DNA from: Eledone cirrhosa
Taxonomy: Eukaryota
Reading direction: 5' to 3'
Length of the DNA: 64,000 nt
Assembly: GCA_964016885.1 (NCBI GenBank)
Contig: OZ024743.1
Location: forward strand, 201,748,001 to 201,812,000
Shown here: in pieces, positions 2,930 to 38,121 of the stretch
How positions within the stretch are numbered: the first letter of the stretch is position 1
Layout of the letters: each line of letters opens with the position of its first letter
Made by a program: the position numbers and the translations under genes
The notes under the pieces: model-generated
Seen by the model: the letters and a program-made list of their open reading frames with translations, nothing else
Told to the model about the DNA's origin: nothing
The model's database searches: none

Positions 2930-3436
2930 CTTACAAAGAAGGATTTGGTATCACGTTGATGAGATGATCTTTTCAATATTTGTTTTGATAATTCAACAAG
3001 TTTCAATCAATTGTTAGTTTAGTACTGGTTTTGTTAGTGAGTAGTAAACACTCTGGATTTCATCAAGTTCTATTCGTTTTTATAAGTTATGAAATAATTT
3101 TCTTGTCTTACTTTTCATAACGTTAATGGGTTCCAGAAATGTAAGAACTTAAAGGCTTGTTAAAATAAATTTAGGCTAATTCCTTGGGGTTAGATTCCAT
3201 TGTGATTTGGATATTGTTGATTAATTTGCTTATCATATTCTAGAATTCAGTGAGTGTGTTTATGCTTTCCTGCCATAGTATAAAGCAATCGTTCAGGTAT
3301 CTTTTCTAGTTGTATTTAAGTCGTGTACGGAATAGTTGTAGTGATTGTCTGTAGATTTATTGTTCACCGAATCCCATGACTAAGTTGGCGTATGTAGGGT
3401 CTACAATTGTATCCATTGTAATCCCTGAGATTTGTC

Positions 3437-3437
<1 letters not shown>
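2930..3437 (-). pseudogene. Degenerate Penelope-like RT fragment
   Basis: Manual translation QISGITMDTIVDPTYANLVMG...RYLNDCFILW...IQITME matches the PLE RT motifs G.xMG...PxxANLxM and RYxDD, with stops. Confidence 0.7.
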
Positions 3438-3498
<61 letters not shown>

Positions 3499-3501
<3 letters not shown>

Positions 3502-3840
3502 ATAATATTAATAAATGGAAACTATATTTATAAAATCCATATTTATTCTATTATATATATTTCAAGGGTACCAAAACTTTGGTACGCTCTCATCAGATAA
3601 AATACAAAGTTTGTTTAATAAATATTGACATATCCAGGAACGAGATCTTAACGGTTGAAGTTTTACCTGGATAGTAAAACTTGAACCGTTAAGATCTCGT
3701 TCCTGGTTATGTCAATAGTTATAAAACAAACTTTGTATTTTATCTGATGAGAGCGTACCAAAGTTTTGGAACCGTTGAAATATATATAATAGAATAAATA
3801 TGGTTTTATAAATATAGTTTCCATTTATTAATAATATTGA
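3499..3840. mobile_element. About 340-bp fold-back element with a hammerhead motif in each arm, embedded in (TA)n
   Basis: 3499-3666 is the near reverse complement of 3673-3840. HHR at 3736-3796 (+) and 3544-3604 (-). Confidence 0.85.
3736..3796 (+). ncRNA. Type I hammerhead ribozyme motif
   Basis: TATTTTAT-CTGATGA-gagcgtaccaaagttttggaaccgtt-GAAA-tatata-TA-ATAGAATA, with 8-bp helix I. Confidence 0.75.
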
Positions 3841-7704: not shown

Positions 7705-10700
7705 AGACTCACAGCAGCAACACCACCAACACCATCACCACCCACACTAGCACCACCATCACCACCGGCGACAACCCCACCGCCAACAACAACAACACCT
7801 TCAACACCACCACCACAAGCACCAACATCGCAAACACAACAACAAAGCACACACACCCAGCAACAACGACAAGAAAATAGCAGAACAACACCCCACCCCA
7901 CCCCCAGAAAAACAAATGCACGGCAATAAATACACACAACAAGAAACTACTGACTTACATAATTGAACACACATACATTTCACAGCACGACTACATAATA
8001 CTAGCACCAATCAAAACGCCAACGAACATAAGACTGCTAAAAATAGCACAGAAACAATACGCAAACATTAAAACGAAATTCCCCAACGCAGTTGGTGATT
8101 TCAGAGACCTAGGAGGGACTCTCAACCGGAGAGTATATTCGGAAATACTCACAGAAGAGCCGACGACCAGCCGAAGGGACGATTCAACGGTCAATTCACC
8201 AGAAGATCAAGTGAAAAGGGATGGAAAAACCATCCTTCCTCTACGAAAAGTACGGTAAGTGGTCTTTCCCATCTTTTCCACTCTATTTTAAACATGACCT
8301 CACTCAGAATAGGCAGCATAAATGAGCGTGGCTTGGGGTCGTCATGGAAGCAGGGTCACCTGCTCAACGACCTCAGGTCACTAAACATAGATGTAGTGGC
8401 CATCAGCGAGACCAGAATCTCCGAAGCACGGGCCTTCGCACCGATCTTCGGCGGCTACGATGTGTACGCATCTCCCAGCCGTCCTGGATCGGGGGGAGGA
8501 GTTGCTGTGCTTTTTCGGATAGGTTTGGATCTCGCCATACGGGCCATCTTCCTGGACCCAGAGGGTAAGTTGGCGGTGCTAGACGTGACCAGCGGAGACA
8601 GGCAAGCTTTCAGGCTAGTGGCCGTCTATGCCCCGACAGGCGCAGGGCGGCCTGATTTCTTCCGGCGCCTGGAGACCTTTCTTGGAACGTCCCGCTCTTT
8701 AGTGTTAGTGGGCGACTGGAACGGGATCTTAGATGCACGCTGGGGCAGTGTGAGATTAGCGGATAGGGTGGGAAGGTGCAAGAGCCTCACCAACCTGCTC
8801 AGGCGTTTTGAACTGTCTGACAGCTACCGATTGGATTTCCCGAATGTGCCAATGTGGACTTGGACAAATCGCATAGGCTCATCCAGATCATATCTAGATA
8901 GAGTATTTTATAGGGAAATAGATAGGTTTAGCATAGGCTGTCCACAATTCAAGATTGTCAGTTACACGGACCACAAATTCGTGATCTGTGTGCTTGACTT
9001 AGATAGGCTTCATAGACGAGGACCCGGCTACTGGAAGCTAAACGCGTCCTTAACAGCGCGCAAGGCCTACAGAAACCGGATTAGCGAACTAGTTAAGCGG
9101 GCGTTGACGGGAGCCATCGTCAACAACAAGTGGTGATTTGCTCTGAAAAGAGCGATTAGAATAGAATCCATTAGGTTTAGTAAGGCTTTAGCAATAGAGA
9201 AAAATAGAGCAGAGGGAGAACTAGTTAGAAATTTAGACGAGGCGTTAGCAAAGGCATCGCGACCGACGTGCTTGCGGCGAAATTGGCCCTTGACCAATTC
9301 TTCAATGTAAAGCACGAAGGCTGCTTTGTCAGAGCTAGGGTGCGTGCTCTCAGACACGAGAGGACGAAAGCTGTTCAATGGGCCCGAGTGGCGGAGGTGC
9401 GTCGTGGCAACAAAGCCACAATCCGGTCTTTGGTGGACCTTGACGGGCGAATGCTACACGATCCCGGGAAAATGTGTGAAGCTTTTTAGCGACACTTCGC
9501 TCAGCTGTTCGGGGGCAGCGGCGGGCCGGGTTGAGGGATGGACTTTAGTGTCTACCACGACGGACTGCCGCGGCTCTCGGCCACTGAGGCGGAGAGTTGC
9601 GAAAAGCCGATAACAGCCGCTGAAGTACGGGAGGCAATGACTGGCTGCACAAGGGGTAAATCGCCTGGTTTGGATGGTCTGCCCTATGAACTTTACGTAC
9701 AGATGCCAGACTTGTTTGGAGGCCTCTTGGCGGACGTCTACTGCAACTGGCAACAGAACGGGAGAATTCCCAGCTCTGTGAGCCGAGGAGCGGTGGCGCT
9801 GCTGAGAAAGGAACCGAACAAGGGGGATAACATAGATAATTTTAGGCCCATAACTCTGCTAAACACAGAGTTCAAGATTTTGGACAAGGTGCTAGCAAAG
9901 AGGTTGGCGCTTGTCGTTGGTGGTCTGGTGGGAGAGGCGTAGACATGCGCCATTCTCGACAGATCCATCCACGAGAACCTCCACCTCATGCGATACATCG
10001 TAGAGAGGGTAGCTAGGGAACCTGGCACGGGTGGGTCTTTGATCAATTTAGATCAGTCGAAAGCTTTCGATAGGGTCGACCATCGTTACCTAACGGCAGT
10101 CCTGAGGGCGGCTGGCTTTGGGCCCGTCTTCAGAGGCTGGATCGCTGCCATGCACAGCGACATCTGCTCTGTGGTGAGAGTGAACGGGCACCTTTCAGAA
10201 CCGTTCAACATCATGCGCTCGGCCCGCCAAGGATGTCCCCTCTCGTCCCTCTTGTACGTATTGAGTCTTGAGCCATTACTGCACAAACTGGAGACGTTGA
10301 GGGGCGTCCCGCGCGAACTAGGATGCATATGCCAACGATGTCACCGTAGTGGTGACGAACGCCAAACACATCGAGGCGATCGGCACTACACTAAGAAAAT
10401 ACGAAGCGGTGACAGGAGCAATGATCAACCAGGAAAAGTCAGTGGGCCTGCAGCTCGGCACCTGGAGAGGCAGGTCCATGCCGTCCAACAGCGTCGTCGG
10501 ACGCTGGACGGACGGACCGGTTAAATTGTTAGGGGTCTGGTTCGGTCCGGACCTCCAGACGGACAAAAACTGGGACGAGGTGACGAGCAGGGTGGCTTCT
10601 CTCAGCCAGAAATGGGCGGAGAGGGAGCTATCCCTGAAAGGTCGAGCGGAGGTGGCTAACGCATACATCGCGTCTGTCATCTGCTACCGCCTGACCGTCG

Positions 10701-11943
10701 TACCCTGTCCTAAGCCTCGCCTGACTGCGCTGGAGCGTTTGCTCTTTCGTTTTTTGTGGAAGGGACGCGCTCCGATGGTCCGGCGGTCCATCTGTTGTCA
10801 ACACCCGCTACGTGGAGGGCTGGGCATGCCGTGGCTGATGATGCGCAGGCACGCGTTCAGGCTACGACATCTCCACCTCTTCCTCGACGGTGATCAGGTG
10901 TGGTCGCCGTTTGCTAGACACGTATTTCCCCAGCTCGTTTCCTTGACGGAGCTGCAGTCCTGGGTCAAGCTAAGACCAAGATGGAGCGCCTGGAGACTGG
11001 AATGTCTTCAGGCGTTCACAGCCCTCGACCATACAGGCAATGTGATCGGTGGAAACTCCACCTCGGCGTTCTATAGAGGATTAGTGGAGGGGAAGAGCGA
11101 CGACGTACTTGGGGAAACTCTAGGCGTCGACGAAAATCAACTAGCCAATCTCTTCGGAAGAACTTTCGGGCCGGGGCCTATGGACAACTTCCAGAAATCT
11201 CTGGCCTGGCAGTGTTACCGAGGAGCCTTGCCAGTTCAGGATAAACTCTACAGGCATGAAGGTGCCGTCAGCCGGGCATGCCCGAGATTCGCGCAGGGCG
11301 ACGAAACCATCCTGCACGCACTCGTCCAGTGTCCTAGCATTGCTGACTTGTGGATTTATGTCGAACACCTGCTGTCGCGTGTAGGACGGATCCGGCTATC
11401 ATCTGAGTCCATCGTGAGGATTGCCCCGCCCTCCTCCTTTAGCCGGGAAGGGCAGTAAGTTTTTATCTGTCTGGTGGCCATGTCGAAAGAGATAGTATGG
11501 TGGACACGTTTGAAAGGGCTGAAGACGAGCACTTACCTCTTCGGTGATGCCCTGATTGACTTTTTCAAATTTCATTTGAAAAGGAAAATCAGAGTAGAGA
11601 GGGAAGTGCTCTGTTCCCAGCATTTTGTTGAAAGATGGGTGAGAGAAGCAAGAATGGCCCGAGTGAATGGGCTTACTCTGAGTATATATCTGTAAATTAA
11701 AGGTGGAAAACTGGGAGAGGGCACTTGCCTTGGTGGTCAGGGTCACTGTGGCCTATTACTGGGCTTTCTCCACAAATGTCCCTCCGAAGTCTCCCCCCTA
11801 TTGGGGTATTTTTCATTGTTATTTTTTGTTACATCCTCTGTTTTTGTTTTTTACACGCAGAAATGCCCATTTGTTCCGCCCTGTATTGTCCTGCACTGTC
11901 CTTAATGTCTACTTTATGTAAACCCTTGTGGTTAATAAAGAAA
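7705..11943 (+). mobile_element. Tx1/L1-type non-LTR retrotransposon, 5'-truncated and inactivated
   Basis: ORF1 3' remnant (Thr/Pro/Gln-rich, open frame 7881-8258 ending LPLRKVR*), then ORF2, T-rich 3' UTR and AATAAA at about 11934. 5' boundary approximate. Confidence 0.85.
8294..11695 (+). pseudogene. ORF2: APE endonuclease + reverse transcriptase + C-terminal zinc-knuckle (zf-RVT-like), several stops and frameshifts
   Basis: SINERGL, AISET, VYAP, GDWN, SYLDR, TDHK (APE). KSPGLDG, FRPITLLN, DQSKAFDRV, RQGCPLS (RT). GGLG and CPR..DETILHALVQC at the C terminus. Confidence 0.92.
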
Positions 11944-11969: not shown

Positions 11970-12064
11970 GTTATTCCTTGAATCTCAGTCATTGATGTTG
12001 GTTAACTGGAAAGTCCGTTGGATTGAATATCAAGCCACTACCTGCAGCCTCAGATATTCAGGAC

Positions 12065-12066
<2 letters not shown>
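11970..12066 (-). mobile_element. Very short 5'-truncated copy of the R4/Dong-type element (3' end only)
   Basis: Reverse complement of about 13527-13624; both sides are (TTA)n. Confidence 0.9.
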
Positions 12067-12097
<31 letters not shown>

Positions 12098-12476
12098 GTA
12101 TTACTATTATTATTACTATGATTATTATTACTATATACATATATACATATATATATATATATATGCGTAGAAATATCCATTATCCCCAGCACACAACTGA
12201 TGAAGGAACATTTTTTCCCGTTCGTGCTTTGCTCTTATTTATAAGTACACCTTATCCAGCAACTACACAACCCCTGTTTCTTCTTATATATATATATATA
12301 TATATAACGGCGATGTATTAGTTATTAATTCTGGCAATATTAATACACAAATATGACCCTCCCCAAGTATAACAACCTATATATATATATATATATATAT
12401 GTATATAGTATTAATAATCATAGTAATAATAATAGTAATACTACTACTAATAATAATAATAATAATAATAATTATT

Positions 12477-13544
12477 AGGTACAGTGCGGGAATCCTGAGA
12501 TGGAATGTTGCTGAACAAAAAGAAATGGATAGGAAGACTAGGAAGCTATTGACTATCTACAACATGTTCCACAAGAGGAGTGATGTCGATAGACTCTACC
12601 TAAGGAGATCTGAGGGTGGAAGAGGTCTTATCAGCATAGAGGACTGTGTTCAGATGGAGAAAAACAACCTATACAAATACGTGACCTATAGTAAGGAGCC
12701 AATGCTCAGAGCTGTACTGAAGGAGGGGACAGTAGGCCAGGGGATACCCAAGGAGGAAATAACATCAAGGAGGAAGAGCAGCCTTAAGGGAAAATCCCTT
12801 CATAGTACCTTCTTTGAGAAAACTGAATTTAGAGATCCACAGACATGGAACTGGTTGAGAAGAGGAGACCTCAAAAAGGCTACAGAAGGAATGCTAATGG
12901 CTGCGCAGGAGCAGGCCCTCAAAACGAAGTGGTTGAAGCACCATATCTACAAGGAGGAGGCTAGCCCACTGTGCAGGATCTGTGGAGAGAGAGAGGAGAC
13001 TGTGGCTCACATTGTGTCCGAGTGTAAACACCTAGCCCAGACCCACTATAAGGGCTGGAGACACGATGTGATGGGCAGGGTGATCCACTGGCACCTATGC
13101 AAAGTAAACAATCTACCACATTCTGAGAAATGGTATGAGCATAGGCCAGAGGCGGTGATGGAGAACAGTCAGGTGAAGGTGCTGTGGGATTTTAGGATAC
13201 AGACGGACAAAAAACTGGAACACAATAGACCTGACCTGGTGGTTGTGGACAAAGAAAAAAGATCGTGCCTGATTGTGGATGTGGCCTGCCCGTTCGACAC
13301 GAGAGTGCAAGAGAAGGAGAGGGAGAAAATTAACCGATACCAGGACCTAAAGTGGGAGGTGAAAAGGATTTGGAACTGCCATGAAGTCAAAGTGATCCCG
13401 ATTGTCATAGGCGCACTGGGGACTATCTCCAAAGGTTTCCAGGGATGGTTAAAGAAAATCGGCCCCTTCACGCTTTTTGGAACGCTTCAAAAGGCATGCT
13501 TGCTTGGAACGGCAAGAACCCTCCGATACGTCCTGAATATCTGA
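12477..13544 (+). CDS. C-terminal part of R4/Dong ORF: RT thumb, CCHC zinc knuckle, restriction-like endonuclease
   Basis: RLYLRRSEGGRGL, CRICGEREETVAHIVSEC, RHD, RPDLVVVD...IVDVACPFD, KEREKINRY. Uninterrupted. The ORF-track start at 12399 is microsatellite-derived. Confidence 0.9.
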   Translation, partial: RYSAGILRWNVAEQKEMDRKTRKLLTIYNMFHKRSDVDRLYLRRSEGGRGLISIEDCVQMEKNNLYKYVTYSKEPMLRAVLKEGTVGQGIPKEEITSRRKSSLKGKSLHSTFFEKTEFRDPQTWNWLRRGDLKKATEGMLMAAQEQALKTKWLKHHIYKEEASPLCRICGEREETVAHIVSECKHLAQTHYKGWRHDVMGRVIHWHLCKVNNLPHSEKWYEHRPEAVMENSQVKVLWDFRIQTDKKLEHNRPDLVVVDKEKRSCLIVDVACPFDTRVQEKEREKINRYQDLKWEVKRIWNCHEVKVIPIVIGALGTISKGFQGWLKKIGPFTLFGTLQKACLLGTARTLRYVLNI

Positions 13545-13630
13545 GGCTGCAGGTAGTGGCTTGATATTCAATCCAACGGACTTTCCAGTTAACCAACATC
13601 AATGACTGAGATTCAAGGAATAACAGTAAC
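12477..13630 (+). mobile_element. 5'-truncated R4/Dong-type REL non-LTR retrotransposon in (TAA)n
   Basis: Flanked by (TAA)n on both sides, which matches the known Dong target preference. Short 3' UTR. Confidence 0.85.
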
Positions 13631-13677
<47 letters not shown>

Positions 13678-14871
13678 TTTCTATATATATATATATAGTA
13701 ATAATAATAAATTTGAAGACTAAAATCCAAAGAGGGCTCGATAAGTATAAATATGTATCAAATATATAAGAACCGTAGAGCAAATATTTATTAAAATAAC
13801 AGATTAAAGTTTAAGCAAAGAATCGCTGCTTTCATCCTTAACGGGATCTTCTGAAGCTAACAAAGTCAATCTGTGAACGCAGAAATGAATATTTCAAAAA
13901 ACGTTGCAACCGGAGGAAAACAGGAAGACGATACTTTCGTTTGTGGAAACGTTCCCTGGCAAAGAACGGGAATAAACGAATATAATACGTCATTATTTGG
14001 AGCGGTGAAAAACAATTACACGCAAAGACAAAACGACGTTTATGGTATAAAAGAAGTCGTAGACTAATATTCTATTAGGTGGTTCATAATGACGTTCTTT
14101 GCAATGAACGGAAAAAACGAAGTGGTGCGGGAGAACAATTGCACGCAAAGACAAAACCACGTAAATGGTATAATTGAAGTCGGAGACTAAAATTCTAACT
14201 AGGAAACCGAATGATTCTTGGCTTCAGAGTTAAGTGTAAAGTACATAAAATACAGAGGTAATTGAAATTAAATAAATACATACACGCATCCATATACGTA
14301 CATACACAAGCATACGCGAAAACACTCGCCATAGGTATACAAATACACGCACGTACACAAAAAAACCCCAAACCCCCCCAAAACCTCACGCACATACAGA
14401 ACCCACGCAACGCCTGTACCCGCACGCATACGAATGTATACACCAAATACACATAAAAATATATATAAAAAAAAATATATATATATGTGTGTGTGTGAGC
14501 GTGTATACATATAATTAAATAAAGGTATATAAATAAATAAATACGTATATAACAAGCGCACACACATACCTACATGTAAATACACATATGTTCGGAGACG
14601 TACGTCAACCAAAACACAAAATACACATACACACACACCCTACTTTAATCTGTTATTTTAATAAATGAATATATATTTATATATATATTTATCAAAATAA
14701 CAGATTAAAGTTTAAGCAAAGAATCGCTGCTTTCACCCTTAACTGGATCTTCTGAAACTAACAAAGTCAATCTGTAAACGCAGAACTGGATATTTCAAAA
14801 ACGTTGCAACCGGAGGAAGACAGGAAGACGATACTTTGGTTCGTGGAAACGTTCGCTGGCTAAGAACGGGA

Positions 14872-15828
14872 ACGAAGTCCGATTTAGGTAGACTTAGTAA
14901 GACGATTCTTGATAGAATTATACCTGAAATTAGAAGTTTGGCCCCTCTTGCACTGTGGAACAATTCCTTCGCGGTGATTGATTGGTTCAACGGCATATGT
15001 AACAAGGAACATTGCCGTTTTATCCAATTCGACATCAACAATTACTACTCCTCCATCACTTTACCACTTTTCCTTAGAGCTATCAATTTCGCTAAAACAC
15101 TCACAGTGGTTAAGGATTTTGAAGTTGATGTCATCCTCAATGCCCGAAAGTCGGTGATTAATTTCGACGACTCTATTTGGATTAAAAAATCCAATAGTAC
15201 CCCATTCGACGTGAGTATGGTCGCCAGTGATTCTGCGGAGGTTTCTGATCTTATCGGCCTTTTCCTTCTTTTCTCTATCAAGGACGAATTCCCCAACACG
15301 GGCGGTGGTTTGTACCGTGACGATGGTCTTTTGACCATGACTAAGTGCGGACCTCGTACTTGCGGCAGGTTCAGAAAAGAACTCACAGCCTTCTTTAAAG
15401 GCTTCAACCTCTCTATACAGGTTGAGGCCAATCTCTCGGTCGTTAATTACCTCGACGTTACCCTCAACTTATTGAATGGGTTGTATTACCCGTGTAGAAA
15501 GCCGAATGATACGCTTAATTACATAAGTAAGCATTCCAACCGTCCTGACAGCATAACCAAGAACCTGGTAAGAAACGTTTCGTTGAGGCTTTCCCGTCTT
15601 TCCACCAACGAGCGTATTTTCAACGACCATTCCACTTATTACAATGAAGCTCTTGCTCGGAGTGGATTTGTCGATAAGGTAGCATATACAGAGTACGAAT
15701 ATAGACCGAGAAGAAATAGATCCCGTCGCATTTGTTGGTATAATCCACCATATAATATGGAAGTGGCCACACCATTAGCTAAGATCCTTCTTTCCCCTAT
15801 TACGAATGATTTTCCCCCTACAGACAAA
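14872..15828 (+). pseudogene. Penelope-like reverse transcriptase fragment
   Basis: KSDLGRLSKTIL, FIQFDINNYYSSI, FDVSMVASDSAEVSDLIG, LYRDDGL, NYLDVTLNL, ICWYNPPY. Homologous to 35533-37116. Confidence 0.88.
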
Positions 15829-15895
15829 TCCTGTCTTCCTCCGGTTGCAACGTTTTTTGAAATATCCAGTTCTGCGTTTACAGATTGACTTTGTT

Positions 15896-15946
15896 AGTTT
15901 CAGAAGATCCCGTTAAGGGTGAAAGCAGCGATTCTTTGCTTAAACT
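15896..15946 (+). ncRNA. Variant type I hammerhead motif (CAGAAGA core) in PLE pLTR
   Basis: AGTTT-CAGAAGA-tCCCgttaaGGGt-GAAA-GCAg...tTGC-TT-AAACT. All three helices form. Related copies at about 13808, 14709, 16292 (-) and 24173 (+). Confidence 0.6.
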
Positions 15947-16053
15947 TTAATCTGTTATTTTAATAAATATTTGCTCTACGGTTCTTATATATTTGATATA
16001 TATTTATCCTTATCGAGCCCTCTTTGGATTTTAGTCTTCAAATTTATTATTAT

Positions 16054-16107
<54 letters not shown>

Positions 16108-16230
16108 TAGCAGAATGGCCCGGCGCTGCTCGGGGTTTGCTCCAGGGTTCATATATATTTGATATATATTTATCCTTATCGAGCCTCGTGAAATAAATAC
16201 GTTTGTTTATATTTTGTTATTGTGTATGCA

Positions 16231-16280
<50 letters not shown>

Positions 16281-16420
16281 TAACAGATTAAAGTTTAAGC
16301 AAAGAATCGCTGCTTTCACCCTTAACGCGATCTTCTGAAACTAAAAAAATAAATCTGTGAAAGCAGAAGTAAATATTTCGAAAAACGTTACACTATATAT
16401 ATTTATATATATATATATAT

Positions 16421-18314
16421 GTGAATATAGACACAGAATATTCGAAAATATTCCGTATGTTTATAATAAACATTTTGAAGACCTAATCGCTATAGAATAG
16501 AATACGTCACGTATTACAATTAGATTCTCGATAAAAGCAAGGGAAGTAAGTCTACGCGTTTCATTCTTGTTAGAATTCATCAGGACTACATATCCAGTGC
16601 TTTTATCGAGAATGACACAGCTAGAGACTTATAGAATACTTAGCTGTGTACAGGAACTGGTTTGAAAGAGCGGTTGCCGGTCCGGCAGAAATTAGAAATT
16701 GGAATAAATGCTCTGAAATAGCGATATATATGTGAATATAGACACAGAATATTCGAAAATATTCCGTATGTTTATAATAAACATTTTGAAGACCTAATCG
16801 CTATAGAATAGAATACGTCACGTATTACAATTAGATTCTCGATAAAAGCAAGGGAAGTAAGTCTACGCGTTTCATTCTTGTTAGAATTCATCAGGACTAC
16901 ATATCCAGTGCTTTTATCGAGAATGACACAGCTAGAGACTTATAGAATACTTAGCTGTGTACAGGAACTGGTTTGAAAGAGCGGTTGCCGGTCCGGCAGA
17001 AATTAGAAATTGGAATAAATGCTCTGAAATAGCGATATATATGTGAATATAGACACAGAATATTCGAAAATATTCCGTATGTTTATAATAAACATTTTGA
17101 AGACCTAATCGCTATAGAATAGAATACGTCACGTATTACAATTAGATTCTCGATAAAAGCAAGGGAAGTAAGTCTACGCGTTTCATTCTTGTTAGAATTC
17201 ATCAGGACTACATATCCAGTGCTTTTATCGAGAATGACACAGCTAGAGACTTATAGAATACTTAGCTGTGTACAGGAACTGGTTTGAAAGAGCGGTTGCC
17301 GGTCCGGCAGAAATTAGAAATTGGAATAAATGCTCTGAAATAGCGATATATATGTGAATATAGACACAGAATATTCGAAAATATTCCGTATGTTTATAAT
17401 AAACATTTTGAAGACCTAATCGCTATAGAATAGAATACGTCACGTATTACAATTAGATTCTCGATAAAAGCAAGGGAAGTAAGTCTACGCGTTTCATTCT
17501 TGTTAGAATTCATCAGGACTACATATCCAGTGCTTTTATCGAGAATGACACAGCTAGAGACTTATAGAATACTTAGCTGTGTACAGGAACTGGTTTGAAA
17601 GAGCGGTTGCCGGTCCGGCAGAAATTAGAAATTGGAATAAATGCTCTGAAATAGCGATATATATGTGAATATAGACACAGAATATTCGAAAATATTCCGT
17701 ATGTTTATAATAAACATTTTGAAGACCTAATCGCTATAGAATAGAATACGTCACGTATTACAATTAGATTCTCGATAAAAGCAAGGGAAGTAAGTCTACG
17801 CGTTTCATTCTTGTTAGAATTCATCAGGACTACATATCCAGTGCTTTTATCGAGAATGACACAGCTAGAGACTTATAGAATACTTAGCTGTGTACAGGAA
17901 CTGGTTTGAAAGAGCGGTTGCCGGTCCGGCAGAAATTAGAAATTGGAATAAATGCTCTGAAATAGCGATATATATGTGAATATAGACACAGAATATTCGA
18001 AAATATTCCGTATGTTTATAATAAACATTTTGAAGACCTAATCGCTATAGAATAGAATACGTCACGTATTACAATTAGATTCTCGATAAAAGCAAGGGAA
18101 GTAAGTCTACGCGTTTCATTCTTGTTAGAATTCATCAGGACTACATATCCAGTGCTTTTATCGAGAATGACACAGCTAGAGACTTATAGAATACTTAGCT
18201 GTGTACAGGAACTGGTTTGAAAGAGCGGTTGCCGGTCCGGCAGAAATTAGAAATTGGAATAAATGCTCTGAAATAGCGATATATATGTGAATATAGACAC
18301 AGAATATTCGAAAA
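16421..18314 (-). repeat. 311-bp tandem repeat, left arm (6 full copies + partial); each unit has a minus-strand hammerhead ribozyme; retrozyme-like
   Basis: Unit starts GTGAATATAGACACAG at 16421, 16732, 17043, 17354, 17665, 17976, 18287 (period 311). TCATCAG (reverse complement of CTGATGA) at 16577+311n. No ORF of 60 aa or more. Confidence 0.95.
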
Positions 18315-18327
18315 TGTACACAGAATA

Positions 18328-20151
18328 TTCCTGTACACAGCTAAGTATTCTATAAGTCTCTAGCTGTGTCATTCTCGATAAAAGCACTGGATATGTAGTC
18401 CTGATGAATTCTAACAAGAATGAAACGCGTAGACTTACTTCCCTTGCTTTTATCGAGAATCTAATTGTAATACGTGACGTATTCTATTCTATAGCGATTA
18501 GGTCTTCAAAATGTTTATTATAAACATACGGAATATTTTCGAATATTCTGTGTCTATATTCACATATATATCGCTATTTCAGAGCATTTATTCCAATTTC
18601 TAATTTCTGCCGGACCGGCAACCGCTCTTTCAAACCAGTTCCTGTACACAGCTAAGTATTCTATAAGTCTCTAGCTGTGTCATTCTCGATAAAAGCACTG
18701 GATATGTAGTCCTGATGAATTCTAACAAGAATGAAACGCGTAGACTTACTTCCCTTGCTTTTATCGAGAATCTAATTGTAATACGTGACGTATTCTATTC
18801 TATAGCGATTAGGTCTTCAAAATGTTTATTATAAACATACGGAATATTTTCGAATATTCTGTGTCTATATTCACATATATATCGCTATTTCAGAGCATTT
18901 ATTCCAATTTCTAATTTCTGCCGGACCGGCAACCGCTCTTTCAAACCAGTTCCTGTACACAGCTAAGTATTCTATAAGTCTCTAGCTGTGTCATTCTCGA
19001 TAAAAGCACTGGATATGTAGTCCTGATGAATTCTAACAAGAATGAAACGCGTAGACTTACTTCCCTTGCTTTTATCGAGAATCTAATTGTAATACGTGAC
19101 GTATTCTATTCTATAGCGATTAGGTCTTCAAAATGTTTATTATAAACATACGGAATATTTTCGAATATTCTGTGTCTATATTCACATATATATCGCTATT
19201 TCAGAGCATTTATTCCAATTTCTAATTTCTGCCGGACCGGCAACCGCTCCTTCAAACCAGTTCCTGTACACAGCTAAGTATTCTATAAGTCTCTAGCTGT
19301 GTCATTCTCGATAAAAGCACTGGATATGTAGTCCTGATGAATTCTAACAAGAATGAAACGCGTAGACTTACTTCCCTTGCTTTTATCGAGAATCTAATTG
19401 TAATACGTGACGTATTCTATTCTATAGCGATTAGGTCTTCAAAATGTTTATTATAAACATACGGAATATTTTCGAATATTCTGTGTCTATATTCACATAT
19501 ATATCGCTATTTCAGAGCATTTATTCCAATTTCTAATTTCTGCCGGACCGGCAACCGCTCTTTCAAACCAGTTCCTGTACACAGCTAAGTATTCTATAAG
19601 TCTCTAGCTGTGTCATTCTCGATAAAAGCACTGGATATGTAGTCCTGATGAATTCTAACAAGAATGAAACGCGTAGACTTACTTCCCTTGCTTTTATCGA
19701 GAATCTAATTGTAATACGTGACGTATTCTATTCTATAGCGATTAGGTCTTCAAAATGTTTATTATAAACATACGGAATATTTTCGAATATTCTGTGTCTA
19801 TATTCACATATATATCGCTATTTCAGAGCATTTATTCCAATTTCTAATTTCTGCCGGACCGGCAACCGCTCTTTCAAACCAGTTCCTGTACACAGCTAAG
19901 TATTCTATAAGTCTCTAGCTGTGTCATTCTCGATAAAAGCACTGGATATGTAGTCCTGATGAATTCTAACAAGAATGAAACGCGTAGACTTACTTCCCTT
20001 GCTTTTATCGAGAATCTAATTGTAATACGTGACGTATTCTATTCTATAGCGATTAGGTCTTCAAAATGTTTATTATAAACATACGGAATATTTTCGAATA
20101 TTCTGTGTCTATATTCACATATATATCGCTATTTCAGAGCATTTATTCCAA
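18328..20151 (+). repeat. 311-bp tandem repeat, right arm (about 5.9 copies), inverted relative to left arm; each unit has a plus-strand hammerhead ribozyme
   Basis: Reverse complement of the left-arm unit. CTGATGA at 18401, 18712, 19023, 19334, 19645, 19956. One substitution noticed (T>C at 19250). Confidence 0.95.
18395..18438 (+). ncRNA. Minimal type I hammerhead ribozyme (representative of 12 copies)
   Basis: gtAGTC-CTGATGA-ATTC taacaa GAAT-GAAA-CGCG-TA-GACT tac. Helix I AGTC/GACT, helix II ATTC/GAAT, palindromic helix III (ACGCGT), GUA cleavage triplet. Confidence 0.9.
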
Positions 20152-20286
20152 TATATATATATATATATACACGCACTATACATACATATATAGATACACA
20201 GACAGCGTCATAATGACGTAATGCAGACAGCCAGACATACAGACAGATATTATAAGGGCGCGACGTTATATCTATGTATCTATCTA

Positions 20287-20500
20287 AAAAGAAAGACTAA
20301 GAATTATAGAGAGAGAGATCGATAAGTCGCCTAATGCGGTGCCTAGGGCATTGAAAATTTGAAATTTCTTTTTCTCAAAACACTCACATGACCATAAGTA
20401 TTACATGTGAAAAGTTTGAAAACAATCGGTTGGGTGGTTCTTGAGTTTTAGTGAACTAACAGACAGACAGACATACATTCTCTGTTTTAGATATATAGAT
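20287..20500 (+). mobile_element. 3' part of a Helitron/HINE-like non-autonomous element; possible 5' end at 16106-16148
   Basis: AAGTTTGAAAACAATCGGTTG...(ACAG)n...TTTTAGATATATAGAT ending and ACTAGCAGAATGGCCCGGCG start resemble DINE-1/Lep1-type elements from memory. Confidence 0.45.
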
Positions 20501-20801
20501 ATATATTATATATATAAACATATATATTTGTGTGTGTGAGTGTGTATCTATATATGTGTGTATGTGTCTGCATATGTGCACGTGTGCGTGTGTTTGTATG
20601 TGTGTGAATATGTGTGCATAAACATTATTCAGTTGTGTTAAGCAAACAGAGGGCCAAGAAAGTGAAACACTGCATTAAGGTTCAATTTTGAAAAACCGTA
20701 ACAGCCGCCCTAACCACATACACACAAATGCATACCAATAATTTCCAGAAACTTGTAGCGTTGTAAATCCTCGAACGGTTTTTATATTTCTTCATGTCAT
20801 T

Positions 20802-20990
20802 GTGGATTGGCAGTATCGGTAGAGGATCGGACGTCATGCTGTGACGCATAGAGTGACGGCCCTTACATTCTGAGTTCAAATACCGCCGAGGTTAACTTTG
20901 CTTTTCATCCTTATGGGTCGATAAAATAAAGTACCAGTAATAATGCACTCGGTAATTGCTGGCCTTGTGCCAAAAGTAGAAACAATTATT
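20802..20990 (+). mobile_element. Family A SINE
   Basis: Full family A motif set. Confidence 0.85.
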
Positions 20991-21601
20991 TAACATACAT
21001 ATAGCTCCAAGGAACCTTGATGCATATTTTATATTCATACCTCACGTGTTGCATATTTCTGTTTCAGGAAAACTGTCATAACACCACATCCTCTTGTGAC
21101 AAGAACGAGAAAATGAGAAGGGGAAGAAAGTTATAAATTTGTAGTGGACAGCAGTAATAACAGCAAATAGTTTCAACCCAGACTTTGTAGAAATGAAAAC
21201 GTCTTCTAACCACCGGTCACAAAGAAAGACAATCGGCATTCTAAACTCCTCTTCCATGCCTCAAACAATAGTAGAATTCCACTATCTTGTGGCAAAGGAA
21301 ACACATAGATGGAATTGTTATAAGGGTTTGTCCACTACATAAAGCTTCGAATTTCATGTTTCGAAGAGATATACGCTTCCTGAATGGAAGTCTAAATAGA
21401 AATGAGACAGTGTTGTAAATATTTATTAACATTTAGTGTAATAGAGAGATGTGATCATTTTCACATGATATGGTGAAATGATTAGTAAACGAGTTATATG
21501 TAGAAGAGTGAATAAAAATAAAGATTATTTACAATATAATATTGGATGGAAATAGAAATAAAATGCTAGATATGAATACAAATTGGGCCATTTTGCTGTG
21601 A

Positions 21602-21671
21602 GCATTGGTGCTTCAGTGGTAGAAAGCTTGCCTGCCACCCGGGCGCCCCGGTTCTATAGACAGCAGATGCG
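21602..21671 (+). pseudogene. tRNA-Gly(GCC)-derived pseudogene
   Basis: GCATTGGTGCTTCAGTGGTAGAA...CCTGCCAC; T arm destroyed. Confidence 0.8.
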
Positions 21672-22138
21672 TTTAAGTAGGATTTAGCTCAGGTAATTCA
21701 TTAGAATTGTTTAGAAATTTCCATCGACAGTTTATTAATGCGATTTCAATGATTTTTTTGATTTTTTTTGTCTAGGTTAACATATTAACAATTATAGATT
21801 TATTTATTCTGGAAGAAGCGCAATTTGTTTTGCGAACGTCAATAATCACAGTACTTTGAGATTTTATGGCTAGACTTGCTCGCCGAACTGTTAGGCTCTC
21901 ACATAATCTCATATATTGTAGAAATGCTATATATTATTTTTGGCTCTAAAACGAAATATTTTGTCATTTTCATAAACAATTAACAGATAAAAACTGTTAA
22001 TTTATGATTATTCTTCTTACATATAGATTTGATTTATTCTTTATATCTGATTAGTTGTAGTAATTAGTCAATATCACTTTGAATGTGAAAAGTATTGAAT
22101 TCCATGATATGAATTCCATTTGAGCAACGTCAATGTGA

Positions 22139-22199
22139 GCATCAATGGGAGAATGCTCGTTTACTACGCGTGACTCGGGTTCGATTCCCGGCCGATGCA
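22139..22199 (+). pseudogene. tRNA-Gly-derived pseudogene
   Basis: D-arm deletion; intact GGGTTCGATTCCCGGCCGATGCA. Confidence 0.8.
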
Positions 22200-22351
22200 T
22201 TATTTCTAAATAATAAATACTTTTAGCTGTTGCAATTTCTTAGTTTTTTAGGTTTTTTCATGATTTGAATCCACAATTATTTATGTATATACGGTGGACG
22301 CATACACCAATTTCTCCTTTTCTCTCTCTCTCCCTCTTTCTCTCTCTCTCA

Positions 22352-22390
<39 letters not shown>

Positions 22391-22688
22391 CACACATTAT
22401 ATATATATATATATATATATATACGTAGCTCTGTCACATAGTGACTAATATTATACATTCCCATGATTACATAGATGGAGTTTTTATAAGGATTTCTCCA
22501 TTACATATATTTTCGAATTTCGTATTGTAAATGCCTAATATCATATGAATATATGTGCCCGGTGAAGAGATATACGCTTCCTGAATGGAAGTCTAAATAG
22601 AAATGAGATAATTTACAATATAATATTGAATGGAAATAAAAGTAAAATGCTTGATTTTAATTAAAAAAATTGGGCTCCAGCAATATGC

Positions 22689-22758
22689 GAATCGGTGGTT
22701 CAGTGTTAGAACTCTCCCATGCCACGCCTGCCGCACGGTTTCGATTCATGGCGTTACA
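22689..22758 (+). pseudogene. tRNA-Gly(GCC)-derived pseudogene
   Basis: GAATCGGTGGTTCAGTGTTAGAA...TGCCACG...TTCGATTC. Confidence 0.75.
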
Positions 22759-23180
22759 TCTTCTCAAGGTTTATCTCTGGCAATCCATTAGAATTGTTTG
22801 AAAGCTCGACTTACCAGTTTATCAATGTTATTCTTTTATTTCAATGATTACTTTTATAGGTTATATTTGTAATAATTAAAAAATAATTATTCTGGAAGAA
22901 GCACCATTTGTTTCGTATTGCGTGCATAAACAATCATACTATTTTCAACTTTTGTGTCTTAACTTACTCGTCGAATTGTTAGGCCCTCACATTATTTTGT
23001 CACTACTATAACAGGTTTAACTTTTCATTCCATAACTTCTTAGGTTACAATGTAACAATTATTTCATATATTTAAAAATGACATTATTTTTGGCCCTAAA
23101 ATGAAATATTTTGTATAACATTGAATGTTATAAAAATTGAATGCCATGATATGAATTCTATCTCAGCCATCTTAACGTGA

Positions 23181-23251
23181 GCATCGGTGGTTCAATGGTA
23201 GAATGCTCGCTTCCCAAGCATGTGATCCGGGTTCGATTCCCAGCCGATGCA
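23181..23251 (+). tRNA. tRNA-Gly(CCC), probably non-functional
   Basis: 71 nt, intact acceptor GCATCGG/CCGATGC and A/B boxes, loop TT-CCC-AA; anticodon- and T-stem mismatches. Confidence 0.7.
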
Positions 23252-23627
23252 TGATATCAATATACTTTTAGTTGTTGCAATCTTTTAGTTTTTTTCAAAA
23301 TCTAAATCAACCCGGTAGATGATGTTGCTCATGTATGATTTCTGAGAATTATTTTCATAAATACTCTTTTATTTTTGGAACAATTTTGTATTCCGCAAGA
23401 AAGTGTCACTAGTTTAGCGACATCAATCATACCATTTTAAATTGCTCTGGCTTTATGTGAACGGCTAATCCTTAGTTCCTTAAAATTAATCGGTTGTTAA
23501 ATATATAATTCTCTTATTCAGAACATATGCATATTCCGGTGTTCAAGGTTTTTTATACACATGATATATATTGTTTTTTTTCAACTTGAATGAAATACTT
23601 TGTCATTTCGAAACATAATTTATTTTG

Positions 23628-23701
<74 letters not shown>

Positions 23702-23714
23702 TATATATATATAT

Positions 23715-28757
<5,043 letters not shown>

Positions 28758-31605: not shown

Positions 31606-31922
31606 TATTATATATATATATATATATTATTATTATGTAATAAACAACATAAGGCAATTATTCCATTTACCAGTGGTTTCTTAAAAGCAAAAGGTTTTGC
31701 TTTCAATCCTCAGAATGAAAAATCCTGGTTTGTTTATTGAATATGGATTCTAAAAACAAAAATGCAATCTATATGAAAGTGAGGCTGGAAAAGGGAGAAG
31801 GAAAGGAAAAATAAAATAAAATAAAACTACACATGCAAACACACACAAAAAAAACATAAAAGCATACTTACACACACACACATATATACACATATAATTT
31901 GCACGCACACATATATACACAT

Positions 31923-31979
<57 letters not shown>

Positions 31980-32036
31980 GAGCGTACACCTACACACACA
32001 TACACATATATGCACACATATACACATACATATATT

Positions 32037-32084
<48 letters not shown>

Positions 32085-32113
32085 CATATATATACACATG
32101 TACATATCCATAC

Positions 32114-32152
<39 letters not shown>

Positions 32153-32610
32153 CATACATATACACATATACAGACATATACATACACACACACACACACA
32201 CACGCACACATGTGTGTGTACAAGCCTACACATACACACACACATATATATACACACACATATACATACATTCACAAAAACATACAACGTACATACATAC
32301 ACATACATGAATGCACTCCACTACATATTAACACACGCAAATAAATATAAGAAAAAATATATATAAATAATATTAACAAATATTTGACAGCGATACATGC
32401 CCCAGCTAACAGGACAGACACGCGTGGTAAGTAATACACACATAAGCACATATACATACGTTCGAAATAGTAAACACATACACACACTCTCACACATAAA
32501 TATACATATGCAAATACATAAACACGTACATACACATACATACGCAAACACGTACACGTATACAATATAAACACACACATGTATATGTAATTATATACAC
32601 ACACACAAAC

Positions 32611-32679
<69 letters not shown>

Positions 32680-32932
32680 CAAAAATATAAAAATATAAAC
32701 GCAAACACACATATACATACATAGCTAAACAATTATACACATGCAAATACGTATATATCAAAAGAACGCACAACCAAATACAAACACACACATATATATA
32801 CACACACACACACCCCCACACACAAACCCACACATACATAAAAATAAATAAAAACACACGCAACATATACATACATACACATACATATACATATATACAT
32901 ACATACATATACACATACACATATACACACAC

Positions 32933-32980
<48 letters not shown>

Positions 32981-34345
32981 ACGTACACATACACACATGC
33001 ATACACATACACACACACATATACATGTGTGTATGTGTAAAGCTCAGTATTAGATAAGACAAATGAACCTTACATAAACGTATATATAGTAGTAAAGTAA
33101 TAAAGCCATACAAGGCAATTAATCCATTCACCAGAGGTTTCTTAAAAGCAAAAAAAGTTTCCTTCAATCTTCAGAATGAAAAAAAGCCCTGGTTTATCCA
33201 CATATACATACATATACACACACAAATATACAAATATATACACACATACAGACACGCACACACACACATATATATATATATATACACATACATATATATA
33301 CACATATATATATATATATATATATATACAGACATATATACATACACATATATACACATACATACATATACATACATACATACACATATATATACATACA
33401 CAAACATATACGTACACATATACATATATACACACACAAATACATACACATACACATAGGTATGTGAAGGGCAAAACAAAAAGAATATATGGGGGAGGGC
33501 TAAGAGGAGGTAAAAATATAAGGGGAGGTCAGGGAGAAAAAATTTTTTAAAAATACAAGAGTACAGAAGGTAGAAGCAGCAAAATAAAAGCCGTAGCAAA
33601 AGTAAAGAGCAGAGAAGGAGTTCAAGGCGGTTGATTTATCGTAGGAGTGTCAATCCAGTTACAGATCAGATGCGATTTCAGATGAGGACAGCATCTGAAG
33701 ATCTCAGTCTTAGAGTTAAGGCAAGCGGAAGTGTCTCTCAAGTTTAGCAAAATCCTATACTTTTCTGTGGTACACAAAGAACAATTCTTTGTGCCCCTTT
33801 GGTACTCCCTCGAATGGTCTAATGTAGACCAATCAATAGAGTACGGGATATTACTATCCTTGAGATCCCATACCTTACTTGCGAGGGCCGTTGATGTTCG
33901 TTTATCTGAGTGTTTAAAAGAAGCGACATGTGAGTAAAATCTGGTTTTAAACCTGTCCTGGGTCATACCGACTCGTCATATCGCTCGCTTCTGGCTGTCT
34001 GGTTGTTGATAGCTGGCGTTATTTTAGCCTCATAAACGACAGATTTTGTGTTACATTTACCCTGCAATGGGCATTCATCCGGCTTCCTGCAACTGCATCC
34101 TGGATTTATCCTCGTACGGTTTGAACTGGTGATTTTGGATTTCATGGATGGACAACAAGAGTAGCTGATCTTAACTACATTCCTATTAAAAATCTTATAA
34201 TATCTATGAATAGGAGGAAAATGTTTGTCTAATAGTTCAAGGAATTTCCTTCCTACATTAGTTTTGACATTTAGAGAGAAGGGGGGTGTGAACCAAATAA
34301 TCTTCCTTTTCCTGTTATTATGGTTAGTTTTAGTGTATATATATG

Positions 34346-34388
<43 letters not shown>

Positions 34389-34453
34389 ATGTATGAATAT
34401 ATGTATGTGTATATGTGTGCATATATGTGTATGTGTGTGTAGGTGTACGCTCT

Positions 34454-34511
<58 letters not shown>

Positions 34512-34713
34512 ATGTGTATATATGTGTGCGTGCAAATTATATGTGTATATATGTGTGTGTGTGTAAGTATGCTTTTATGTTTTTTTTGTGTGTGTTTGCA
34601 TGTGTAGTTTTATTTTATTTTATTTTTCCTTTCCTTCTCCCTTTTCCAGCCTCACTTTCATATAGATTGCATTTTTGTTTTTAGAATCCATATTCAATAA
34701 ACAAACCAGGATT

Positions 34714-34773
34714 TTTCATTCTGAGGATTGAAAGCAAAACCTTTTGCTTTTAAGAAACCACTGGTAAATGGAA
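34714..34773 (+). ncRNA. Type I hammerhead ribozyme in PLE pLTR (copies at 39009-39068 + and 31661-31720 -)
   Basis: TTTCATT-CTGAGGA-TTGAAAGCAAAA cc TTTTGCTTTTAA-GAAA-CC act GG-TA-AATGGAA. Confidence 0.9.
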
Positions 34774-34992
34774 TAATTGCCTTATGTTGTTTATTACATA
34801 ATAATAATAATTAAGCTCTGTTGCTTACATAGAGCACTCTTTTTTCCTGGACTTTTCCGATGGAATTACTTCATTTATACAGCTCCAACCGGGATTGATC
34901 GCAGCATATTCGATATTACATATACGATTGGCACTTTCCAGCCCGATTAGTTGAGCACTCTACAGTTTTCAGGAATTTAACCAACATACACC

Positions 34993-37116
34993 ATGGACCT
35001 TTATGATTTGGATTATTCTATCAAAAACATACCCACTCCTTCCAATACAACATACACCAAAATCCTCATTGATAAAATCGAGCAAGTCGTTAAAAGAATG
35101 AGATGGAAGGCAATGGTTTACGATGGACTATTCAGTGCTGATACTAAAGATAATTTTGACATTAAATCCCGTAAATATCCACCTAGAATTAAAGACATGG
35201 CCAACTTCGAATTAGACCTCGTTAATCTAATTAGTGATATCAAATTCGTAAGTACAATAATAATTTTCAAACTAAACTTTCTCACGATATCTCTAATTTT
35301 AGAAATTCTACAAACACTTTCGTTCTTTCTGATAAAACCAAAAACCTCTTTGAAGTTAATAGTAATTTGTATAACCAACTTTTAACTAATAGTATTACCA
35401 ATAAATATCAATTAACTAATAATAATAGCTACAATACTATCAATAAAGAAGCTAAAGAACTAGCTAGTTCTTTACAAATAGATAACCGGATTAGCTAAGC
35501 GTAAAGCATATATTACCCTTAAAGACCATAAATTGGACTTTACTAATCGACCTAGTTGTAGACTGATTAACCCGGCTAAATCCGAGGTTGGCCTTGCTAG
35601 TAAGAAAATCTTAAGAAAAATAATTCTCCAAATTAGAACTAACACTGACCTTTCACAGTGGCTAAATACTTCCTCTGTTATTTCTTGGTTCAATAATATA
35701 CAAGGTAAAAATAAGTGTAGATTTACGCAATTTGATATTGTCGATTTTTACCCTTCTATTACCGTTTCCTTATTAACTAAAGCCTTAGATTTTGCAAGAC
35801 CCTTCATTAATATCTCCAAATTAGAAGAGGACATTATCTTTCATGCCAGAAAAACTTTACTTTTTACTAATGATAATATTTGGGTTAAAAAGTCAAACCC
35901 TGAAAACTCTTTCGATGTTGCAATGGGTTCTTATGACAGTGCGGATGTGTGCGACTTAGTAGGATTATTCCTTCTCCACACACTCCAAGAGAAATTTCCG
36001 TCCCATAATATCGGTTTATACCGTGATGACGGATTAGCTGTTTCTCATACCACCAATGGCCATAATCTTGATAAATTCCGTAAAGATTTAATTAGTACCT
36101 TTGCTAATCTTAACCTTAAAATTACTATAGATACGAACCTTACTAATGCTAACTTTCTTGATATTAATCTTGATCTACTTACTGCCTCTTTTAAACCCTA
36201 TCATAAACCTAATGAAAATCTTAGGTATATACACAAAGAGTCTTGCCATCCCCCTATAGTTTTTAATAATCTTATTCCTAACATTAGCCGTAGGATTTCT
36301 ACTTTATCTTCGTCTATAGACATTTTTAATAAAGCCGCCCCTTATTATAATAAAGCCCTTAAGAACAGCGGTTTTACAGAAAATATTTCTTATTTACCTA
36401 CTCCTCCCCCTAAAACTAACCATAATAACAGGAAAAGGAAGATTATTTGGTTCACACCCCCCTTCTCTCTAAATGTCAAAACTAATGTAGGAAGGAAATT
36501 CCTTGAACTATTAGACAAACATTTTCCTCCTATTCATAGATATTATAAGATTTTTAATAGGAATGTAGTTAAGATCAGCTACTCTTGTTGTCCATCCATG
36601 AAATCCAAAATCACCAGTTCAAACCGTACGAGGATAAATCCAGGATGCAGTTGCAGGAAGCCGGATGAATGCCCATTGCAGGGTAAATGTAACAAAAAAT
36701 CTGTCGTTTATGAGGCTAAAATAACGCCAGTTATCAACAACCAGACAGCCAGAAGCGAGCGATATGTCGGTATGACCCAGGACAGGTTTAAAACCAGATT
36801 TTACTCACATGTCGCTTCTTTTAAACACTCAGATAAACGAACATCAACGGCCCTCGCAAGTAAGGTATGGGATCTCAAGGATAGTAATATCCCGTACTCT
36901 ATTGATTGGTCTATATTAGACCATTCGAGGGAGTACCAAAGGGGCAGAAAGAATTGTTCTTTGTGTACCACAGAAAAGTATAGGATTTTGCTAAACTTGA
37001 GAGACACTGCCGCTTGCCTTAACTCTAAGACTGAGATCTTCAGATGCTGTCCTCATCTGAAATCGCATCTGATCTGTAACTGGATTGACACTCCTACGAT
37101 AAATCAACCGCCTTGA
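34993..37116 (+). CDS. PLE RT + GIY-YIG endonuclease; frameshifts near 35255 and 35485; 35533-37116 open
   Basis: YSIKNIP..KRMRWKA; RLINPAKS, FDIVDFYPSI, MGSYDSADVCDLVG, LYRDDGL, IIWFTPPF, CSC..CPLQGKC..VVYEA..YVGMT..FKTR..H, CSLCTTEK, LNSKTE. Confidence 0.92.
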
Positions 37117-37560
37117 ACTCCTTCTCTGCTCTTTACTTTTGCTACGGCTTTTATTTTGCTGCTTCTACCTTCTGTACTCTTGTATTTTTAAAAATTTTTT
37201 TCTCCCTGACCTCCCCTTATATTTTTACCTCCTCTTAGCCCTCCCCCATATATTCTTTTTGTTTTGCCCTTCACATACCTATGTGTATGTGTATGTATTT
37301 GTGTGTGTATATATGTATATGTGTACGTATATGTTTGTGTATGTATATATATGTGTATGTATGTATGTATATGTATGTATGTATGTGTATATATGTGTAT
37401 GTATATATGTCTGTATATATATATATATATATATATATGTGTATATATATGTATGTGTATATATATATATATATGTGTGTGTGTGCGTGTCTGTATGTGT
37501 GTATATATTTGTATATTTGTGTGTGTATATGTATGTATATGTGGATAAACCAGGGCTTTT

Positions 37561-37619
37561 TTTCATTCTGAAGATTGAAGGAAACTTTTTTTGCTTTTAA
37601 GAAACCTCTGGTGAATGGA
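37561..37619 (+). ncRNA. Second, diverged pLTR hammerhead (copy at 33123-33181 -)
   Basis: TTTCATT-CTGAAGA-stem II-GAAA-CC tct GG-TG-AATGGA. The GUG triplet violates the NUH rule. Confidence 0.75.
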
Positions 37620-37770
37620 TTAATTGCCTTGTATGGCTTTATTACTTTACTACTATATATACGTTTATGTAAGGTTCATTTGTCTTATCTAATACTGAGC
37701 TTTACACATACACACATGTATATGTGTGTGTGTATGTGTATGCATGTGTGTATGTGTACGTGTATGTGTG

Positions 37771-37801
<31 letters not shown>

Positions 37802-38059
37802 GTGTGTGTATATGTGTATGTGTATATGTATGTATGTATATATGTATATGTATGTGTATGTATGTATATGTTGCGTGTGTTTTTATTTATTTTTATGTAT
37901 GTGTGGGTTTGTGTGTGGGGGTGTGTGTGTGTGTATATATATGTGTGTGTGTTTGTATTTGGTTGTGCGTTCTTTTGATATATACGTATTTGCATGTGTA
38001 TAATTGTTTAGCTATGTATGTATATGTGTGTTTGCGTTTATATTTTTATATTTTTGTAT

Positions 38060-38121
<62 letters not shown>

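Follow-up and report, generated by a model that had tools for sequence, protein, structure and literature searches.

A templated filler at the inversion junction of a hammerhead retrozyme array in Eledone cirrhosa, likely a scar from the joining of two separately synthesized cDNAs

The window considered here, a stretch of 64,000 nt from Eledone cirrhosa (GCA_964016885.1, contig OZ024743.1, positions 201,748,001–201,812,000), contains two tandem arrays of the same 311-bp unit, placed head-to-head between (TA)n tracts (Table 1). To their left is a Penelope-like element (PLE), also head-to-head, belonging to a young family with many open frames of up to 943 aa in the genome and 126 scored matches; further end copies of it are found at 16244–16392 and 23629–24367. 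A second PLE-like element, with an asparagine-rich stretch, occupies 25416–28564 on the minus strand. No Pfam RT match was obtained for three PLE-like frames. Frameshifted LINE-like frames at 8099–11458 and 12357–13544 are of endonuclease/RT type by eye, with one weak zf-RVT match; large, older, microsatellite-rich inverted duplications extend over 31625–39104 (arms at 32352–34333 and 36410–38380, 82–99% alike), and a tRNA match scoring 55 bits, which exceeds the Rfam cut-off, is located at 23181–23251. The neighboring PLE family has no similarity to the 311-bp unit, and a pattern search found no hammerhead core in eight of nine of its loci; nor was a terminal sequence common to the retrozyme and an autonomous PLE found for the one PLE family compared.

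Table 1. Positions, within the window, of the retrozyme arrays, their junction, their target tract, and the adjacent Penelope-like element.
Feature	Position	Strand	Remarks
Penelope-like element, head-to-head	13682-16072		Inverted ends of 244 bp, lying in AT tracts; RT-type frame of 381 aa (14743-15888)
(TA)n target tract, left side	16394-16420		Read from sequence
Left arm	16413-18315	- (ribozyme strand)	311-bp unit in 6.1 identical copies; ends at phases 131-140 (outer) and 104 (inner)
Source of second filler tract (left-arm end)	18297-18309	+
12-nt filler	18316-18327	+	18315-18323 copies right-arm start; 18318-18330 copies left-arm end; 6-nt overlap
Right arm	18328-20152	+ (ribozyme strand)	311-bp unit in 5.9 copies; ends at phases 208 (inner) and 166 (outer)
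Source of first filler tract (right-arm start)	18332-18340	+
Predicted type I hammerhead motif, first right-arm unit	18390-18442	+	One per unit; from sequence and fold (z -6.8)
Tail of ~35 nt	20118-20152	+	Only at right outer end of the window element
(TA)n target tract, right side	20151-20169		Read from sequence

The unit has a GC content of about 35% and folds well (z −5.3), and no reading frame of at least 100 aa was found in 16413–20152. Each copy carries a motif that we take, from the hammerhead consensus, to be a type I hammerhead. In the first right-arm unit its core is at 18401–18407 and 18422–18425, with stem II at 18408–18421, a short, palindromic stem III at 18425–18430, a predicted cut after 18431, and a 16-bp outer stem enclosing the whole motif. 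The core, stems I–III, and the GUA triplet were read from the sequence, and stems I and II are also present in the predicted fold; an Rfam scan of 12000–26000, at E values up to 1, listed no hammerhead family. As tandem, non-coding units within the 150–450 bp range, below 50% GC and each with a predicted type I hammerhead, the window arrays have the makeup of a non-LTR retrozyme, and would be classed as one inserted within a (TA)n tract. There are 1148 genome copies of the exact 35-nt hammerhead core and 990 occurrences of the tail end adjoining (TA)n. A search of public runs listed no RNA run.

The left and right arms of the window element measure 1903 and 1825 nt. A single substitution, at 19250 in the right arm, is the only one among all the unit copies, and the left arm matches the unit exactly. 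The final eight bases of the left (TA)n tract are identical to part of the AT tract within the unit, the putative priming site of the end without a tail, and the right flank of the array is a high-copy repeat.

The arrangement is not peculiar to this site. Among loci found by unit or core search, the window included, 20 of 23 have the head-to-head form, their ribozyme strands directed outward. A second sample was drawn by tail end, from the first 100 listed of the 990, all on contig C1 and chosen by 10 nt of AT after the tail; four of these were already in the locus set and one lay inside another stretch, leaving 95 stretches. An inverted arm is present in 89 of the 95, five are single-armed, and one runs off the stretch. 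No tail-to-tail arrangement was seen among the sampled insertions and the unit/core-search loci. Head-to-head inversion is the normal form of this retrozyme family. The outer ends fall at unit phase 164–173 or 131–140, two sites about 35 nt apart, and by a motif test 108 of 108 elements have one end with a tail and one without (three of the latter are truncated, by an N gap or by the limit of the retrieved stretch). A crude k-mer test gave two no-tail ends at one locus, the motif test at none, and the rule also holds in all 18 complete loci that were not picked by an end. Two features of the PLE type are seen in the insertions: an inverted 5′-truncated copy placed head-to-head and a 30–40-nt tail at one end only. 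(TA)n is present at both ends. Flanking duplications of 11–14 nt were seen at six loci and one of 28 nt at another; as a weak test of target-site duplication, seven of 19 informative loci were positive vs. 44 of 342 cross pairs.

Two loci (L034 and L042) are single-armed arrays of about six units, with both array ends at the unit's AT tract. They possibly result from excision between AT tracts or from a single-primed event, and may be one site on two contigs. An older related repeat family, with roughly 70–80% identity to the unit, occurs at L059, L087, L106, L109, L116, and L143, with the same two end sites and in head-to-head pieces.

At the window junction, the 12 bases between the arms (GTACACAGAATA) belong to neither. 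Together with T18315, shared with the left arm, and TTC at 18328–18330, shared with the right arm, they resolve into two overlapping tracts: TGTACACAG (9 nt) is found again at the right-arm start, and ACACAGAATATTC (13 nt) at the left-arm end, with ACACAG as their overlap. Templates for the entire filler lie at most 25 nt away. Among 50,000 random 12-nt fillers with the composition of the 311-bp unit, local tracts of at least 9 nt fully covered just six, as they do the window filler, and tracts of at least 7 nt covered 207. The original prediction had described a templated filler at the inversion junction, a chimera of the two arm ends joined at ACACAG; both tracts were indeed located in the adjoining arm ends, with the overlap as described, although one T is counted twice across its two strings. 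That the arms break at different phases of the monomer also holds, with breaks at 104 and 208 when numbered from the predicted ribozyme cut. The 30-nt string across the junction occurs once in the assembly.

Junctions elsewhere in the family were then counted. A duplicate element (the second copy in L084, identical to L083), L047 (duplicated and complex), and L144 (with a stutter) were dropped beforehand; L061 (a slip inside the arm) and L092 (an allele mismatch to the reference) were omitted from the templating test only. Twenty-four of the 108 resolved junctions have an insert; of the others, 17 are blunt, and the sequence shared by the two arm ends is 1 nt long in 18, 2 nt in 20, and 3–16 nt in 29. 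Microhomology of at least 3 nt is thus found at 29 of 84 insertion-free junctions, where random phase pairs give an expectation of 6.6% (p = 4e-14). Fillers of at least 3 nt are wholly templated within 60 nt in 11 of 17 cases vs. 1.18 expected, their sources being the left end, the right start, or the reverse complement of the right start, i.e., in both direct and inverse orientation. Inserts of at least 6 nt, the window's class, are a minority (nine, counting one slip and one allele mismatch). Comparison across the family, which had been called for in the original prediction, agrees with the view that this is not a mirror duplication: break phases are scattered, and seven of the 108 junctions are near-palindromic (within 10 nt) vs. 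7.3 expected.

The inner ends show no pile-up at the predicted ribozyme cut, with six of 148 within 3 nt of it; a mild excess at phases 1–25 (27 of 216, p = 0.015) is for a bin picked post hoc. L061, L126, and L144 have 5, 5, and 113 extra bases, respectively, no more than 70 nt away from the junction, and no other gain of more than 3 nt was found in 3534 landmark intervals inside the arms, pointing to unstable synthesis around the join. The longest, at L144, consists of 12 units of 11 or 9 nt, a telomerase-like stutter about 20 nt before the junction and some 2360–2230 bases in from the end of its stretch on the tail side; beyond the stutter the arm resumes normally. At L047 the junction is present twice (3343–3520), and its two copies are separated by a sense piece of 129 nt together with a slipped link of 16 nt.

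The two arms of an element are closely related in sequence. The commonest unit type is the same in both at 43 of 50 loci, vs. 118 of 2450 cross-locus pairs, and 459 of 509 unit copies equal the type of their locus (34 types among 68 loci). Since both arms carry one unit type in near-identical copies, a bottleneck through one unit, for instance an RNA circle, would be favored. At L098 and L082, certain variants (seven of 67 testable) occur in both arms but only in their outermost units. These are in register from the outer ends and not mirrored about the junction, which favors a common start of both arms; L098 itself favors either a multimer of mixed units as the template or a switch of template made jointly by the two arms. 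Variants confined to one arm are also seen, in outer units at L074 and L106, where one shared template does not account for them, and more generally at L074, L106, L072, and L065 in runs of neighboring units or, at L065, seven units apart. In length the arms correspond only loosely (Spearman 0.30; L090 and L129 left out of the set): the medians are 960 and 1296 nt, either arm can exceed the other, with the no-tail arm the longer at 36 of 87 loci, and they are within 10% of each other at nine of 87.

Scattered, non-palindromic break phases, together with microhomology and locally templated fillers, suggest that the arms were likely primed separately, from both ends of the target, and then joined. 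A Penelope-type enzyme would cut both strands of the (TA)n tract, and each 3′ end would prime reverse transcription on the same retrozyme RNA, one starting at the tail site and the other at the AT tract of the RNA, some 35 nt upstream. Both cDNAs would run through many units, of an RNA circle or a long multimer, and stop at arbitrary phases, their free 3′ ends meeting mid-element. At the window junction, where homology is poor, the left cDNA end would prime on the right cDNA via 1 nt and copy 8 nt, the right cDNA end would prime on the left via 3 nt and copy 10 nt, and the two new tails would anneal through the 6 nt now shared. The filler likely records failed attempts at joining two separately made DNA copies, and there is good reason to regard it as a scar of such joining during insertion of a hammerhead retrozyme.

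The order of the filler tracts bears on how the copies were made. All three fillers with two sources (the window, L080, and L114) have the right-arm copy first and the left-arm copy second, as read from the sequences; this is three cases, with a chance probability of 1 in 8. A cDNA that slipped back along its RNA template would show the opposite order, while the product of cross-priming also arises if one strand copies the other cDNA and the RNA by turns. We infer that, for the crossed order to form, an end of one cDNA must have copied the other cDNA at least once, and because that step is DNA-templated, a pure jump between RNA templates is not enough. Of the earlier proposal of microhomology-guided switching or second-strand priming at integration, then, templated synthesis with microhomology stands, and formation of the junction by such synthesis during integration is supported; switching between RNA templates is by itself insufficient. 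A DNA-templated step fits the second-strand priming proposed, and end joining by polymerase theta fits at least equally.

As to the enzyme, host polymerase theta is slightly favored for the joining, and the element's RT in a DNA-copying mode is the less probable candidate, at somewhat below an even chance. On C23 at 21.159–21.188 Mb, minus strand, HTH_61 (helicase-type) exons are followed by DNA_pol_A exons; from its domain architecture, this is presumably a POLQ-like gene. Insertions attributed to polymerase theta are described as 3–30 bp copies of flanking DNA, direct or inverse and often iterative (PMC7165422), and end joining has been credited with L1 inversion junctions (PMC11702581; 10.1101/2024.08.27.596794). 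Purified PLE protein is described as cutting and extending both strands, and the tail is defined by the two internal sites at which it starts (PMC11167929).

The closest alternative has the element's RT acting alone, the left cDNA priming on the right cDNA, slipping to the RNA via ACACAG, and annealing via TTC. It shares the geometry of cross-primed joining and differs in the enzyme, so that its probability is counted within that of the preferred reading; taken singly, it is rather unlikely. The window sequence allows such a path, and the PLE RT, a relative of telomerase, extends both strands (PMC8557442, PMC11167929). The stutters, confined to the neighborhood of three junctions, would also suit it, but they could equally come from second-strand synthesis right after joining. 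Against it, none of the 24 fillers is a long foreign or distant insert, though RT jumps can capture other RNAs (PMC11702581), and filler size, nearness of the sources, use of both orientations, and iteration make up the signature described for polymerase theta (PMC7165422).

Self-priming, in which one cDNA or antisense RNA folds back and is copied into the inverted arm, has been proposed for Penelope elements with palindromic junctions (PMC3846280). The unit is hairpin-rich, a 16-bp stem is used at two junctions (L051 and L059), seven junctions are near-palindromic, and the window arms are similar in length. Those seven are no more than expected, however; arm lengths across the family seldom match, the variants shared between arms are in register from the outer ends rather than mirrored about the junction, and the substitution at 19250 has no mirror image in the left arm. 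For this retrozyme family, with no excess of palindromes at its junctions, fold-back is largely refuted and very improbable at the window. The family's junctions speak for end-to-end joining of two cDNAs and against self-priming by fold-back.

An inversion after insertion, by breakage and repair within a pre-existing tandem array, would be in keeping with templated fillers and microhomology as general repair scars (PMC7165422), but it would need exactly one event at about 94% of loci, always head-to-head and each time leaving one tail and one no-tail 3′ end, and hardly merits consideration. An artifact of assembly or library preparation, from a fold-back or chimeric read, is equally remote: no contig from four public runs spans the window junction, so that the single site rests on the assembly, but the flanks differ on the two sides, and since the layout recurs on many contigs, in nearly all sampled loci, with fixed, asymmetric outer ends and distinct flanks, a single such read is an unlikely cause. 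Antisense-to-sense joints at other phases are present in contigs of public runs X2 (four joints) and X6 (one, with a 9-nt filler), weakly, as the short sides are 23–29 nt.

The preferred reading, of two cDNAs primed separately and then joined, can tentatively be taken further. Penelope-type integration might itself be an obligatory double priming, in which an enzyme dimer on a single small RNA circle initiates two reverse transcriptions, each from its own target strand and its own start site, and insertion is complete only once the cDNA ends have been stitched by reciprocal cross-priming; we would place this just short of an even chance. If true, the roughly 1,000 young junctions are a natural record of the last step, replacing the self-priming model. 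How PLEs finish integration, and why inverted repeats form, are stated to be open questions (PMC8557442, PMC11167929), and mobilization of animal retrozymes by PLEs has only been proposed.

Metazoan non-LTR retrozymes are described as non-coding tandem units of 150–450 bp and low GC, with one type I hammerhead each (PMC7229834; bioRxiv 10.64898/2026.07.22.740005). Like them, the window family is dispersed, has many copies, and coexists with PLEs (PMC7229834), and the short stem III of its predicted hammerhead resembles amphibian dimeric hammerheads (PMC7229834; bioRxiv 10.64898/2026.07.22.740005). The words "inverted", "opposite", and "orientation" are absent from the main text of PMC7229834, and the text consulted from the 2026 preprint (bioRxiv 10.64898/2026.07.22.740005) describes no head-to-head arrays or junctions. 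More generally, no inverted retrozyme arrays or junctions were found in the main texts of the literature searched, insertion schemes for retrozymes being something that may appear in supplements.

In insertion structure the family is closer to EN+ PLEs, whose insertions are described as having an inverted 5′-truncated copy head-to-head, a one-sided 30–40-nt tail, and (TA)n targets (PMC8557442, PMC3846280). The head-to-head form, tail at one end, (TA)n, and two start sites are common to both (PMC8557442, PMC3846280, PMC11167929); the window family differs in having no ORF, in that both arms are multi-unit arrays, and in junctions that are not palindromic. It also uses one start site per end, whereas with PLE protein in vitro both strands used both sites (PMC11167929).

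The window filler is a known kind of scar. As in polymerase-theta insertions, short tracts are copied from the flanks in direct or inverse orientation, in several rounds, with short microhomologies and in AT-rich sequence (PMC7165422); the templated fillers found here, copied from the near flanks in either orientation and accompanied by a bias to microhomology, agree with the described inserts of 3–30 bp. Unlike the polymerase-theta insertions described at nuclease cuts, the ends joined would be those of retroelement cDNAs (PMC7165422). In L1 twin priming, likewise, both target ends prime RT, and the product is head-to-head with microhomology or a short insert at the junction (PMC11702581; bioRxiv 10.1101/2024.08.27.596794). 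There it is described as a minority outcome, where in the window family it is the rule, and the second L1 primer is near the end of the first cDNA, such that the arms barely overlap (PMC11702581; bioRxiv 10.1101/2024.08.27.596794). In the window family, in contrast, the starting points of the two arms are about 35 nt from each other and both arms are repeated copies of the same units, without poly(A), so that L1-type twin priming as such does not describe them. Retrozymes, inverted PLE structures, twin priming, and templated scars are each already known; the new part is the junction statistics of head-to-head retrozyme arrays, for which this family offers about 1,000 near-identical recent events with countable junctions.
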